Assembly (NCBI GenBank): GCA_963740755.1
Contig: CAVUFJ010000017.1
Location: 45,131 to 109,130 of the forward strand
DNA: 64,000 nt
Direction: 5' to 3'
DNA from: Rhodothermales bacterium
Lineage (GTDB): Bacteria; Bacteroidota; Rhodothermia; Rhodothermales; BA12
In this document: positions 28,021-30,718 of the stretch, piece by piece
How the letters are laid out: each line of letters opens with the position of its first letter
Position numbering within the stretch: the stretch's first letter is position 1
Notes under the pieces: model-generated
What the model saw: only the letters and a program-made list of their open reading frames with translations
The model's database searches: none
Told to the model about the DNA's origin: nothing
Position numbers and translations under genes: made by a program

Positions 28021-29956
28021 ATGTCCGACCTCCGCCTGACGCTCCCCGACGGTTCTGCGCGCTCGTTTCCGGCGGGCACGACCGGGCGCGACGTCGCCCG
28101 CTCGATCTCGGAAGGCCTCGCCCGCAACGCCCTCGCCGTCGAAGGTGAATGGCGAGGTGCGCGACCTCGACCGCACGATCGAGGGCGACGCCACGTTTGC
28201 GGTGCTGACGTGGAACGACGCGGAGGGCAAGAGCACGTTCTGGCACTCGTCCGCCCACCTCATGGCCGAGGCGCTCGAAGCCCTCCACCCAGGTGTCCAG
28301 TTCGGTATTGGGCCGCCCATCGAGCAAGGCTTCTACTACGACGTGGACCTCGGCGGGCAGACGCTCACGCCCGAAGACCTCGCCGCGCTGGAGGCCAAGA
28401 TGATCGAACTCGCCCGCCGCGACGTGCGCTACGAGCGCCGCGCGGTGCCGAAGGACGAGGCCGTCGCCTACTTCACCGAAAAGGGCGACGCCTACAAGCT
28501 CGACCTGCTGGAGCGCCTGGAAGACGGCACGATCACGTTCTACACGCAGGGCGGCTTTACCGACCTCTGCCGCGGCCCCCACATCCCTAGCACGGGCGGC
28601 ATCAAGGCGGCCAAGCTGCTCTCGGTGGCGGGCGCGTACTGGCGGGGCGACTCGAACAACAAGCAGCTCACGCGCCTGTACGCCATCACCTTCCCCAAGA
28701 AGAGCGAGCTCGACGCCTTCCTCGAACTCCGCGCGGAGGCCGAACGGCGCGACCACCGCAAGCTCGGGCGCGAGCTGGAGCTGTTCCTGCTCACGCCCAT
28801 GATCGGCGGGGGGCTGCCCGTGTGGCTGCCCAAGGGGACGGTGCTCCGGCGCACGCTGGAGGGCTTCCTGCGCGACGAGCAGCGGCGGCGCGGCTACCAG
28901 GAGGTCATCACGCCCCACATCGGCAACCTCGAACTCTACAAGACGAGCGGGCACTATCCGTACTACGCGGACTCGCAGTACCCGCCCATGCAGATCGAGG
29001 ACGAGCAGTACCTGCTCAAGCCGATGAACTGCCCGCACCACCACATGGTCTACGCGAGCAAGCCCCGCTCCTACCGCGACCTGCCGGTGCGCCTCGCCGA
29101 GTTCGGAACGGTGTACCGCTATGAGCAGTCCGGCGAGCTCGGCGGCCTCTCGCGCGTGCGCGGCTTCACGCAGGACGACGCGCACCTCTACTGCACCCAC
29201 GACCAGCTCAAGGACGAGATCAAGGGCGTGGTAGACCTCACGCAGTTCGTCTTCCGGACGTTCGGCATGGAGGTGACGACGCGCCTGTCCTTCCGCGACG
29301 AGAACGAGGCCAAGTACGGCGGCGAGCGCGAATACTGGGACCGCGCGCAGCGCGAGATCCAGGAGGTGGCCGACGAGATGGGCCTCGACTACTTTATCGG
29401 CGAGGGCGAGGCGGCCTTCTACGGGCCGAAGATCGACTTCATCGTGCGCGACGCGCTCGGCCGCAAGTGGCAGCTCGGCACCGTGCAGGTAGACTACGTG
29501 ATGCCCGAGCGCTTCCAGCTCGAATACACGGGCGCCGACGGGCAGAAGCACCGCCCGGTGATCATCCACCGGGCGCCGTTTGGCTCGATGGAGCGCTTCG
29601 TGAGCATCCTCATCGAGCACTTCGCGGGCAACTTCCCCGTGTGGCTCGCGCCCGTGCAGGTGGCCGTGCTCCCCGTCTCCAACGCCTTCGACGAGTACGC
29701 GAAGCGGGTGGAGCAGACGCTCCTCGACGCCGGCCTCCGCGCCGAGGCCGACCTGCGCTCGGACAAGGTGGGCTACAAGATCCGCCAGGCCGAACTCCAG
29801 AAGGTGCCTTACATGCTCATCGTGGGCGCGAGCGAGGCCGAGAGCGGCACCGTCGCCGTGCGCCGCCACGGGCAGGGCGCCCAGGAATCGGCAGACCTCA
29901 CGGCCTTCCGCGATGCGCTCGTAGCCGAGGTGGCCGGGCAGATGGGGCGCGCGTAA
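28021..29956 (+). CDS. thrS: Threonine--tRNA ligase; +1 frameshift near 28144
   Basis: TGS domain [59 protein letters not shown]. Confidence 0.97.
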
Positions 29957-30077
29957 CGACAAAGCTCAGCCGCAGCGGGGAAAAACTACAGGGGCTGAAA
30001 TGGGGAGAGTGGAGCGAGAAGGTGTGGGCGAGGCCTGTGTGCTAACACCCACTGTCGGCTGAAGTGTTGGTTTATGC
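29951..30077 (+). mobile_element. attC-like site 1 (integron cassette recombination site) overlapping the thrS stop
   Basis: GCGTAAC-gacaaagctCAGCCGCAGCGGG ... CCCACTGTCGGCTG-aagtgttg-GTTTATGC; imperfect inverted repeat with unpaired bases; 127 bp. Confidence 0.7.
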
Positions 30078-30132
30078 GGCACAAACGCAGCCACCAAAGG
30101 TTCACTGGGCCTGTTCAGACCCCGTGCAAGCG

Positions 30133-30330
30133 ATGAGCATTCAGGAGATCGAGGCCGCCATCATGCGCCTGCCCGTCAGAGACCTCGCCCAACTGACGGC
30201 GTGGCTGGACGACTACAATGCGGCAGCGTGGGATAAGCGAATCGAGGCAGACTTAGAAGCGGGCCGGCTTGATAAGCTGCTTGATGAGGTGGACCGTGAG
30301 TACGAAGCGGGAGAGGCGAGGCCGCTGTGA
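30133..30330 (+). CDS. Putative antitoxin (65 aa, acidic)
   Basis: MSIQEIEAAIMRLP..WDKRIEADLEAGRLDKL; GTGA overlap with the downstream toxin-like gene. Confidence 0.75.
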   Translation: MSIQEIEAAIMRLPVRDLAQLTAWLDDYNAAAWDKRIEADLEAGRLDKLLDEVDREYEAGEARPL

Positions 30331-30590
30331 TTCATCTGACGCTGCCGCGTTTCTGGCGGCACTACGAGAAACTGCCGGTCGAAATCCGCGAGTTGGCCGA
30401 CAAGAACTACGAGTTGCTCAAAGCCGACCCGAAGCATCCGTCGCTGCACTTCAAGAAGGTCGGGGCGAAGCGGGGGCTTTGGTCGGCGCGCGTGGGCGAG
30501 CATTACCGGGCGCTGGGTGTGGAGAAGCCGGAGGGGATGGTGTGGTTCTGGATTGGCACGCACGCCGAGTACGACGGTCTCATTGCGTAG
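30327..30590 (+). CDS. RelE/ParE-like toxin
   Basis: FWRHYEKLP, LLKADPKHPSLHFKKVG, WSARVGEHYRALG, WFWIGTHAEYD. Confidence 0.85.
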   Translation: MIHLTLPRFWRHYEKLPVEIRELADKNYELLKADPKHPSLHFKKVGAKRGLWSARVGEHYRALGVEKPEGMVWFWIGTHAEYDGLIA

Positions 30591-30600
30591 GTGGTGCGCG

Positions 30601-30718
30601 GCATAACAACAAAGCTCAGCCGCGCCCACCACGAGCATTGCCGAGCGGGATGAATGTACAGAATGGCATGAGCATGAAGAGCGGCACGGAAGGCGTCGGC
30701 TGTAGCGCTGTGTTCTGC
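30601..30718 (+). mobile_element. attC-like site 2
   Basis: GCATAAC-aacaaagctCAGCCGCGCC ... GGCGTCGGCTG-tagcgctgt-GTTCTGC; 118 bp; starts 10 nt after the toxin stop; shares ACAAAGCTCAGCCGC with site 1. Confidence 0.78.

Follow-up and report, generated by a model that had tools for sequence, protein, structure and literature searches.

Within sedentary chromosomal integrons, attC sites form species-specific families, such as the Vibrio cholerae repeats, and attC sites that lie within 4 kb of one another are what IntegronFinder defines as a CALIN, a group of attC sites that has no integron integrase with it. According to the available part of one report, 1362 of 2961 CALINs belong to the two-cassette class and most CALINs are not adjacent to pseudogenes of the integron integrase (intI); the same text describes off-platform insertion of cassettes at genomic GWT sites, with essential genes being avoided (bioRxiv 10.1101/2022.09.11.507474). 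Here we describe two attC sites located between the genes thrS and infC in a 64,000-nucleotide stretch of contig CAVUFJ010000017.1 of a Rhodothermales bacterium (hereafter, the window, meaning this whole stretch). This locus is very probably a two-site CALIN that originated by off-platform, attG-type insertion of cassettes between the two genes, and it is now probably immobile.

The host is a soil bacterium represented by a Rhodothermales metagenome-assembled genome with a GC content of ~70% (3.78 Mb in 18 contigs, 70.8% complete). The thrS gene, which encodes threonyl-tRNA synthetase (28145..29956, plus strand; Pfam tRNA-synt_2b, HGTP_anticodon and tRNA_SAD), and infC, which encodes IF3 (listed at 32708..33283, plus strand; Pfam IF3_N and IF3_C, and alignment to relatives), are separated in the window by 2.75 kb, and the GC profile across 29957-32700 falls to 51-63%, compared with ~70% in the flanks. 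Judging from the alignment with relatives, the true start of infC is likely the ATC at 32765. In 19 of 30 relatives, a genome of the same genus included, the two genes are found on one contig at a distance of 98-767 bp (in the remaining 11, they reside on different contigs or far apart, or infC was not found), and the same-genus genome has a spacer of 222 bp that contains no attC-family site. The longest of these distances, 767 bp, comes from a family-level relative (G008, C36:6243-7010, locus L097); the other 18 adjacent cases span 98-339 bp. This comparison of intervals had been proposed in a first-pass annotation of the window, made from the sequence alone, and it bears out the idea of a captured unit at thrS-infC; the extent of that unit, which the annotation had limited to a toxin-antitoxin pair, has to be revised. 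The inserted DNA would comprise the entire 2.75 kb gap, with a probable second cassette behind the second attC site.

The two sites belong to a repeat family that is spread over the genome. The 16-mer AACAAAGCTCAGCCGC from the left arm, with up to 2 mismatches allowed, occurs 21 times in the 3.78 Mb, compared with 0 occurrences of the reversed control, so that the genome scan advocated in the first-pass annotation found the motif more often than chance would give. The elements of the family are 52-128 nt long and combine conserved ends with unrelated centres. Fifteen complete copies, the two window sites among them, were aligned (alignment A1); RNAalifold recovered from the raw alignment the 5-bp core of the L box and nothing more, and the structure was then drawn by hand. 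A covariance model, R1, was built from A1 and, because the window sites belonged to its seed, a second model, R2, was built from 13 other copies of this genome, with the two window sites left out. Model R2 matches both window sites over their full length, whereas its next best match in the 64 kb scores 15.2 bits: site 1 (29951..30077, 127 nt) is detected with 105.0 bits (E 2.4e-28) and site 2 (30601..30718, 118 nt) with 68.7 bits (E 1e-17), the respective R1 scores being 109.8 and 84.2 bits. The top strand of both sites is on the minus strand of the window, the sites have the same orientation and are 524 bp apart, and their lengths fall within the range of 57-141 bp, with a variable central structure, given for attC sites in the accessible text of one source (PMC5027507). 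A search with R1, filters off, detected no third attC or attI-like site in 29000-34000 (nothing above 6.6 bits in 30719-34000), and a search of Rfam yielded no relevant family, the one sub-threshold match, to speF (31278-31449; 16.6 bits against a gathering threshold of 37), lying outside both sites.

Genome-wide, R1 detects 30 copies when matches up to E<=1 are counted, and 23 when the limit is E<=1e-3; the copies are distributed over 10 of the 18 contigs (contigs of this genome are numbered C1 and so on), some as single elements and others clustered with a spacing of 450-1650 bp on C5, C13, C14, C9 and C1, and several of the arrays are degenerate. In alignment A1, 91.7% of the cells in the L box and inner stem (helix 2) are paired, three stem pairs show compensatory changes (13 cells changed on both sides), and the overall pairing of 81.6% drops to 28-49% when the partner strand is slid by 1-3 columns. 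The AAC and GTT columns pair in 11-14 of the 15 members; the outer four positions of the R box are variable, with AAC/GTT alone being kept. The R boxes of the window agree with this family consensus of their own genome and, contrary to the first-pass annotation, are not deviant.

The arms that both sites share read GC[G/A]TAAC[G/A]ACAAAGCTCAGCCGC on the left and GTCGGCTG.AG on the right, and the ends on the minus strand are GCATAAAC...GTTACGC for site 1 and GCAGAAC...GTTATGC for site 2. On the plus strand, the AAC arm of site 1 consists of the R' box GCGTAAC (29951-29957), an unpaired spacer (29958-29964) and the L' box CT+CAGCCG+C (29965-29973), and the other arm consists of G30054, an extrahelical T30055, CGGCTG (30056-30061), an extrahelical A (30062 or 30063) and the complement of R'', GTTTATGC (30070-30077). 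Site 2 is organized in the same manner, with R' GCATAAC (30601-30607, crossover 30606|30607), L' at 30615-30623, the extrahelical T30696 and T30703 around CGGCTG (30697-30702), and GTTCTGC (30712-30718) as the complement of R''; its variable centre is similar to that of a copy at C13:29561. The proximal extrahelical base in these sites is A or T where G is usual.

These palindromes are linked to integrons by their company in relatives and in the present genome. Matches to R1 were found in 21 of 31 Rhodothermales genomes (this one and the 30 relatives), and TIGR02249, the integron integrase profile, scores above its cut-off in 13. Whenever the two could be compared at close range (within ~4 kb on the same contig), intI is divergent from the R1 orientation: this is so in all 10 adjacent cases from 8 relatives, 2 of these 10 integrase matches being partial, with six other integrase-bearing genomes left unscored for want of a listed site on the same contig. 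The intI remnant on contig C14 of the present genome is likewise divergent from the model orientation. Among the 19 cassette open reading frames (ORFs) of the present genome submitted to Pfam, 12 have a match, and all 12 are encoded on the strand of the model and end just before an attC site; the 7 without a match give no contrary evidence. The products are typical cassette cargo, namely an APH-like kinase, three alpha/beta hydrolases, two PIN toxins, a HIT protein, a class A beta-lactamase-like protein, a methyltransferase, two Arr-like proteins and an MGMT-like protein. Given the association with intI in relatives and this cargo, both palindromes are genuine attC sites of an integron cassette family. 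The two palindromes of 118-127 bp with common arms had been located correctly in the first-pass annotation, as had the toxin-antitoxin pair that they bracket, and its identification of them as attC sites is supported by the R2 scores, the paired boxes and the link to intI.

The polarity of the array is a separate matter. As far as the accessible text of the same source goes, the extrahelical bases of an attC site are on the AAC-side arm of the top strand and on the arm opposite 5'-AAC-3' of the bottom strand, where the distal one is a conserved T, with a spacing of 6 bp from the first to the last (PMC5027507). On the plus strand of the window, the AAC arm has no unpaired base and both extrahelical bases are on the other arm, around a 6-bp stem and with a distal T; moreover, R1 and R2 match only the minus strand at these sites. 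The plus strand is therefore the bottom, recombinogenic strand; the direction of the array is from infC to thrS, with the toxin-antitoxin genes oriented against it. It follows from this polarity that the toxin-antitoxin cassette owns site 1, whereas site 2 closes the unit upstream. The cassette order of the first-pass annotation thus stands insofar as two attC sites bracket the pair, but the direction is reversed, and the attC site that belongs to the pair is site 1, not site 2.

When the G|TT rule is applied to sites 1 and 2, the toxin-antitoxin unit, cassette B, occupies 29957..30606 (650 bp, minus strand). In array orientation, it starts with TTATGC (30606->30601), which complements the R'' box of site 1 at 4/4 outer positions, and ends with the G of the site 1 R' box (29957). 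The toxin gene (30327..30590, plus strand, 87 aa) encodes a ParE-like protein that matches the Pfam family PF24732 ParE_like with E 2.7e-9 and 37.3 bits (cut-off 24.4) over profile positions 3-66 of 67. The start of this gene overlaps by 4 nt (GTGA) the preceding ORF for an antitoxin candidate of 65 aa (30133..30330, plus strand), which belongs to no Pfam or NCBIfam family. With a ParE-fold toxin and a small, coupled antitoxin upstream, the pair appears to be a type II toxin-antitoxin system of the ParE/RelE superfamily. Homologues of the toxin are present in 66 of 285 Rhodothermales genomes. Among the best nine homologue loci, all from other genera, four are in attC-bounded cassettes (65-71% identity) and five have no R1 match within 1.5 kb; at one homologue locus (L120), the same 65-aa partner precedes the toxin homologue, and the cassette ends, GTTATGCGGC...GCCGCATAAC, are as in the window. 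One relative, G007, carries ~27 listed attC matches over 30 kb (C1:908988-938139), with its intI on another contig, and this array holds two sense-oriented ParE-like toxin homologues (928444 and 930854). The pair in the window probably works as an addiction module, so that losing the insert would come at a cost.

Behind site 2, the GC profile (51-63% GC) and a reading of the minus strand point to a probable second unit, cassette A (30607..32474, minus strand). It contains an ORF for a 344-aa protein with a hydrophobic, Cys-containing N-terminus (31352..32386, minus strand) that is oriented with the array. This protein is an orphan: it has no Pfam or NCBIfam family, a search of ~5.8 billion proteins returned itself alone, and a search of 284 other Rhodothermales genomes gave 0 with a copy. 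The orphan gene would have come from a donor with a lower GC content. A 157-aa ORF that ends 6 nt from site 2 (30724-31197) was considered and rejected as a gene, having neither a Pfam or NCBIfam family nor a homologue.

In the arrangement of sites and genes, the locus has the makings of a CALIN: two attC sites at the distance given above, no third site nearby and no integrase on the contig. The crossover point predicted for site 1, AA|C at 29956|29957, is directly behind the stop codon of thrS, and the TAA itself (29954-29956) falls within the R' box, as the first-pass annotation had it. The foreign DNA accordingly begins exactly after TAA, which fits the position expected of recombination between attC and a genomic G|TT. 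An integron integrase would have inserted the cassettes by recombining attC with such an attG-like genomic site, the host would have contributed ...GCGTAA, and thrS would have stayed intact. Alignment with relatives shows ThrS ending at the same position, with its length unchanged.

The docking at a stop codon does not call for any special targeting. An open frame that ends with TAA inside R' is present at 5 of the 13 terminal sites in the genome, thrS and a Peptidase_C14 gene being credible, one more plausible and two doubtful. The TAAC tetranucleotide is rare in this genome, and of the 1191 TAAC sites that fall outside crude gene calls, about 110 are stop codons, so chance together with selection is enough to account for the observed coincidence. 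A preference for TAA|C stops of convergent genes as landing sites was considered and dropped (2 solid cases out of 13 here and at most 1 out of 20 in relatives). The second credible case involves a weak attC site (C9:888703-888823, 26.3 bits), the R' box of which overlaps the TAA stop of a convergent gene for a 765-aa Peptidase_C14, or caspase-domain, protein (C9:888818-891115); the geometry is the same as at thrS.

The cassettes now appear to be without a working integrase. Profile searches with PF00589 (tyrosine recombinase) and TIGR02249 detected nothing on the 143.8 kb contig of the window (C17), in agreement with the first-pass annotation that had seen no integrase, and the locus is accordingly not a complete integron, which would have intI with attI and a Pc promoter beside the array. 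The best TIGR02249 match in the genome scores 51.4 bits against a cut-off of 265, and four PF00589 matches on other contigs are far under the integron integrase cut-off. A remnant integron is nevertheless recognizable on C14 (131836-135233; L112), in which the N-terminus of intI (TIGR02249 positions 1-81 and Pfam Phage_int_SAM_4, in two frames, with the rest of the gene gone) is followed by four attC sites on the other strand, with cassettes for an 84-aa ORF, a 112-aa ORF, an APH-like kinase and an alpha/beta hydrolase. Contigs of a public soil-metagenome run that cover small parts of the window are identical to it there except for one base fewer at 31055 and an extra C after 31119, as indel noise in this assembly would produce; these two indels leave the ORF picture unchanged, and in view of them, the frameshift in the C14 intI may be an artefact, whereas its truncation is real. 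With the only intI truncated, the cassettes are probably frozen, and remobilisation would need an integrase encoded in the 29% of the genome that is not assembled, or one brought in by incoming DNA. The suggestion that an IntI acts in trans is not borne out, the only intI in this 71%-complete assembly being an N-terminal remnant.

Several observations weigh against an attG-type insertion of genuine attC cassettes. The thrS stop codon is TGA, not TAA, in all five close relatives examined, so that a TAA|C target supplied by the host must be assumed for the present lineage. The junction on the infC side, sought with the spacers of five relatives and by a reading of the minus strand, was not located between 32387 and ~32745: the spacers of the relatives align only from ~32745 onward, and the best G|TT candidate, 32475|32474 (GTTC), is weak, with 4 of 7 positions matching the R'' of site 2. 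An attG-type insertion thus fits at the left junction, while the right junction was not found. Within the probable cassette A, 634 nt between the 344-aa ORF and site 2 contain no recognizable gene. Both covariance models derive from copies of this one genome. The predicted hairpins are no more stable than dinucleotide shuffles (z -0.35 and -0.31 for the minus strand, +0.28 and +1.04 for the plus strand), although long attC sites carry large variable loops and, for that reason, we take this test to be uninformative; of the bottom-strand folding that the first-pass annotation had invoked, the pairing of R and L boxes holds in the family alignment. The end of site 1, GTTTATGC, is complementary to the start of site 2, GCATAAC, save for one extra T that may be a homopolymer error. 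This complementarity, which had been read as the trace of a circular cassette, is real but not general: it is perfect (4/4 outer positions) in 3 of 16 adjacent pairs compared with 3.0% of 854 non-adjacent pairs, but the mean for the 16 adjacent pairs is 1.81/4 against a control value of 1.74, because many of the arrays are degenerate, and we do not retain it as a general signature of neighbouring sites. The only public run that covered parts of the region, a soil-metagenome run containing 9% of the sampled words, gave no joints; it yielded three short, low-depth contig pieces (30536-30575, 30979-31209 and 32464-32722) that are uninformative on excision, circles or empty sites. Finally, the toxin and antitoxin genes are co-oriented with the sites in all four relatives in which they occur near attC, and the inverted arrangement in the window is the exception.

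Alternatively, an integron could have decayed in place, with intI and attI once located on the infC side and the platform and most of the array deleted, leaving two cassettes. A decaying integron is indeed present in this genome, namely the intI remnant next to four attC sites on C14, and several arrays are degenerate; the unlocated right junction, together with 290-380 bp of unassigned DNA ahead of infC, leaves room for a lost attI. We nevertheless consider this scenario unlikely: neither TIGR02249 nor PF00589 gives a signal on the 143.8 kb contig, the space that remains in front of infC is no longer than the normal spacer of relatives, and the last crossover matches the end of thrS to the base, which is to be expected from G|TT insertion and not from random deletion. 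Besides, the accessible text of the CALIN report gives 95% of CALINs as not lying beside intI pseudogenes (bioRxiv 10.1101/2022.09.11.507474).

The polarity of the sites and their nature can each be read differently. If the array had plus-strand polarity, the toxin-antitoxin genes would be in the sense orientation, as they are in the homologous cassettes of relatives, and site 2 would be the cassette's own attC; taken by themselves, the R boxes are symmetric, and the complementarity of GTT(T)ATGC and GCATAAC fits either polarity. Yet a plus-strand top strand would require the extrahelical bases on the other arm, the models match the minus strand only, and that orientation is the one that is divergent from intI in 10 of 10 cases and that is used by 12 of 12 Pfam-supported cassette genes; furthermore, the site 1 crossover would move to 30070, which gives no explanation for the coincidence with the thrS stop. 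Taken together, these observations make plus-strand polarity highly improbable. It is hardly conceivable, in turn, that the palindromes are a dispersed repeat of the repetitive extragenic palindrome (REP) or miniature inverted-repeat transposable element (MITE) kind, unrelated to integrons and flanking a toxin-antitoxin pair by chance. The distribution over 10 of 18 contigs, with some single copies, and the unremarkable folding energy would suit such a repeat, but the copies show cassette-like spacing with one co-oriented gene per unit, the cargo includes Arr, class A beta-lactamase-like, APH-like, PIN and HIT proteins, the copies are tied to intI in relatives, and compensatory changes are seen in the stem, whereas the centre differs between copies in both length and sequence.

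Under the off-platform insertion that we favor, the orientation of the toxin-antitoxin genes still has to be accounted for. With the homologous pairs co-oriented elsewhere, the copy in the window stands apart: its interior is reversed, while the attC bodies keep the polarity of the array. Recombination of a whole cassette through the top strand would, according to the accessible text of that source, invert the attC site as well (PMC5027507), and it is ruled out as the cause here by the common orientation of sites 1 and 2. The interior could instead have been flipped between the R-box inverted repeats of 9-10 nt, or the cassette could have been born in this form. Perhaps, though we regard this as doubtful, the integrase itself flipped the interior in place by joining R' of site 2, on the bottom strand, to R'' of site 1, on the top strand; the proposed reaction would use two AA|C sites in inverted orientation within the 9-10 nt inverted repeats (TTATGCGGC...GCCGCATAA). 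Homologous cassettes with the same end sequences are found in normal orientation in four other genera, as expected if the window copy was inverted secondarily. If true, the flip would be a site-specific inversion beyond the described integron reactions, one that leaves the attC bodies undisturbed, and arrays could in this way point their internal promoters in a new direction, which here would be toward thrS and away from the orphan cassette. Irrespective of how the orientation arose, the toxin-antitoxin pair has a putative promoter of its own, reading against the array.

Elsewhere in this genome, integrase-less arrays with all cargo in the sense orientation are present at C5:5966-12204 (L113), C13:28616-30268 (L114) and C9:648057-649811 (L115). 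Their products include a class A beta-lactamase-like protein (PF13354, E 1.5e-42), two Arr-like homologues of rifampin ADP-ribosyltransferase (E ~1e-45), a HIT protein, a methyltransferase, hydrolases and PIN toxins. One hydrolase cassette is found at both C14:134268-135233 and C5:5966-6931, where the degenerate attC is the same and the DNA downstream is identical; it represents either a true duplication or one locus that was assembled twice. Two strong attC sites on C5 (12080-12204 and 117383-117504) have an R'' that reads GCGTCCC where xxxTAAC is expected, and share the DNA beyond R''; possibly, this is the same cassette present twice or an element inserted at R''.

The locus described here is a clean natural example of a known process; it is not a new kind of element and leaves the current understanding of integrons unchanged. 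Its value lies in a natural, base-resolved footprint of cassettes that landed outside an integron, behind an undamaged essential gene and in a phylum with little-studied integrons, and such a landing lends support to the off-platform route by which cassettes were recently proposed to spread. The genome as a whole is a useful case of a decaying integron system, with a truncated integrase and ~25-30 scattered attC sites, in which environmental resistance-type cassettes (Arr-like, class A beta-lactamase-like and APH-like) occur beside toxin-antitoxin modules. There is also a lesson for annotation, namely, that R boxes by themselves do not reveal the polarity of attC: in this case, the apparent direction was reversed once the extrahelical bases and the integrase geometry were considered.

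Compared with known systems, the family resembles the attC families of sedentary integrons in that its sites of 118-127 nt are highly alike within the genome, with common L boxes and a variable region that is partly shared, and in the presence of toxin-antitoxin cassettes. It differs from them in having ~25-30 copies in small clusters or as single sites, a truncated integrase, and variants of 52-54 nt beside the long ones. Like the parDE cassettes of Vibrio cholerae, cassette B combines a ParE-type toxin with a small antitoxin upstream, but the toxin in the window is of the ParE_like family PF24732 and the antitoxin has no Pfam family. In the accessible texts on the Vibrio cholerae array, the parD/E3 promoter faces against the array (bioRxiv 10.1101/2023.11.21.568050), and a stabilising role is described for such toxin-antitoxin cassettes (PMC11023631, PMC9668308). 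What the locus shares with attG-type insertion is a G|TT junction that fits GWT, an essential coding sequence that is spared, and a complete attC at one end only. The differences are the second junction, which was not found, the TGA that relatives carry where the TAA target is needed, and the kind of evidence: insofar as the available text describes it, the published work is experimental, with IntI1-3 in E. coli, whereas here the product alone is seen (bioRxiv 10.1101/2022.09.11.507474). With respect to the CALINs of the two-cassette class, the two co-oriented attC sites, 524 bp apart on a contig without intI, are as expected; what sets the locus apart is its origin from a Rhodothermales metagenome-assembled genome and the position of the array, which adjoins, to the exact base, the stop codon of an essential gene.

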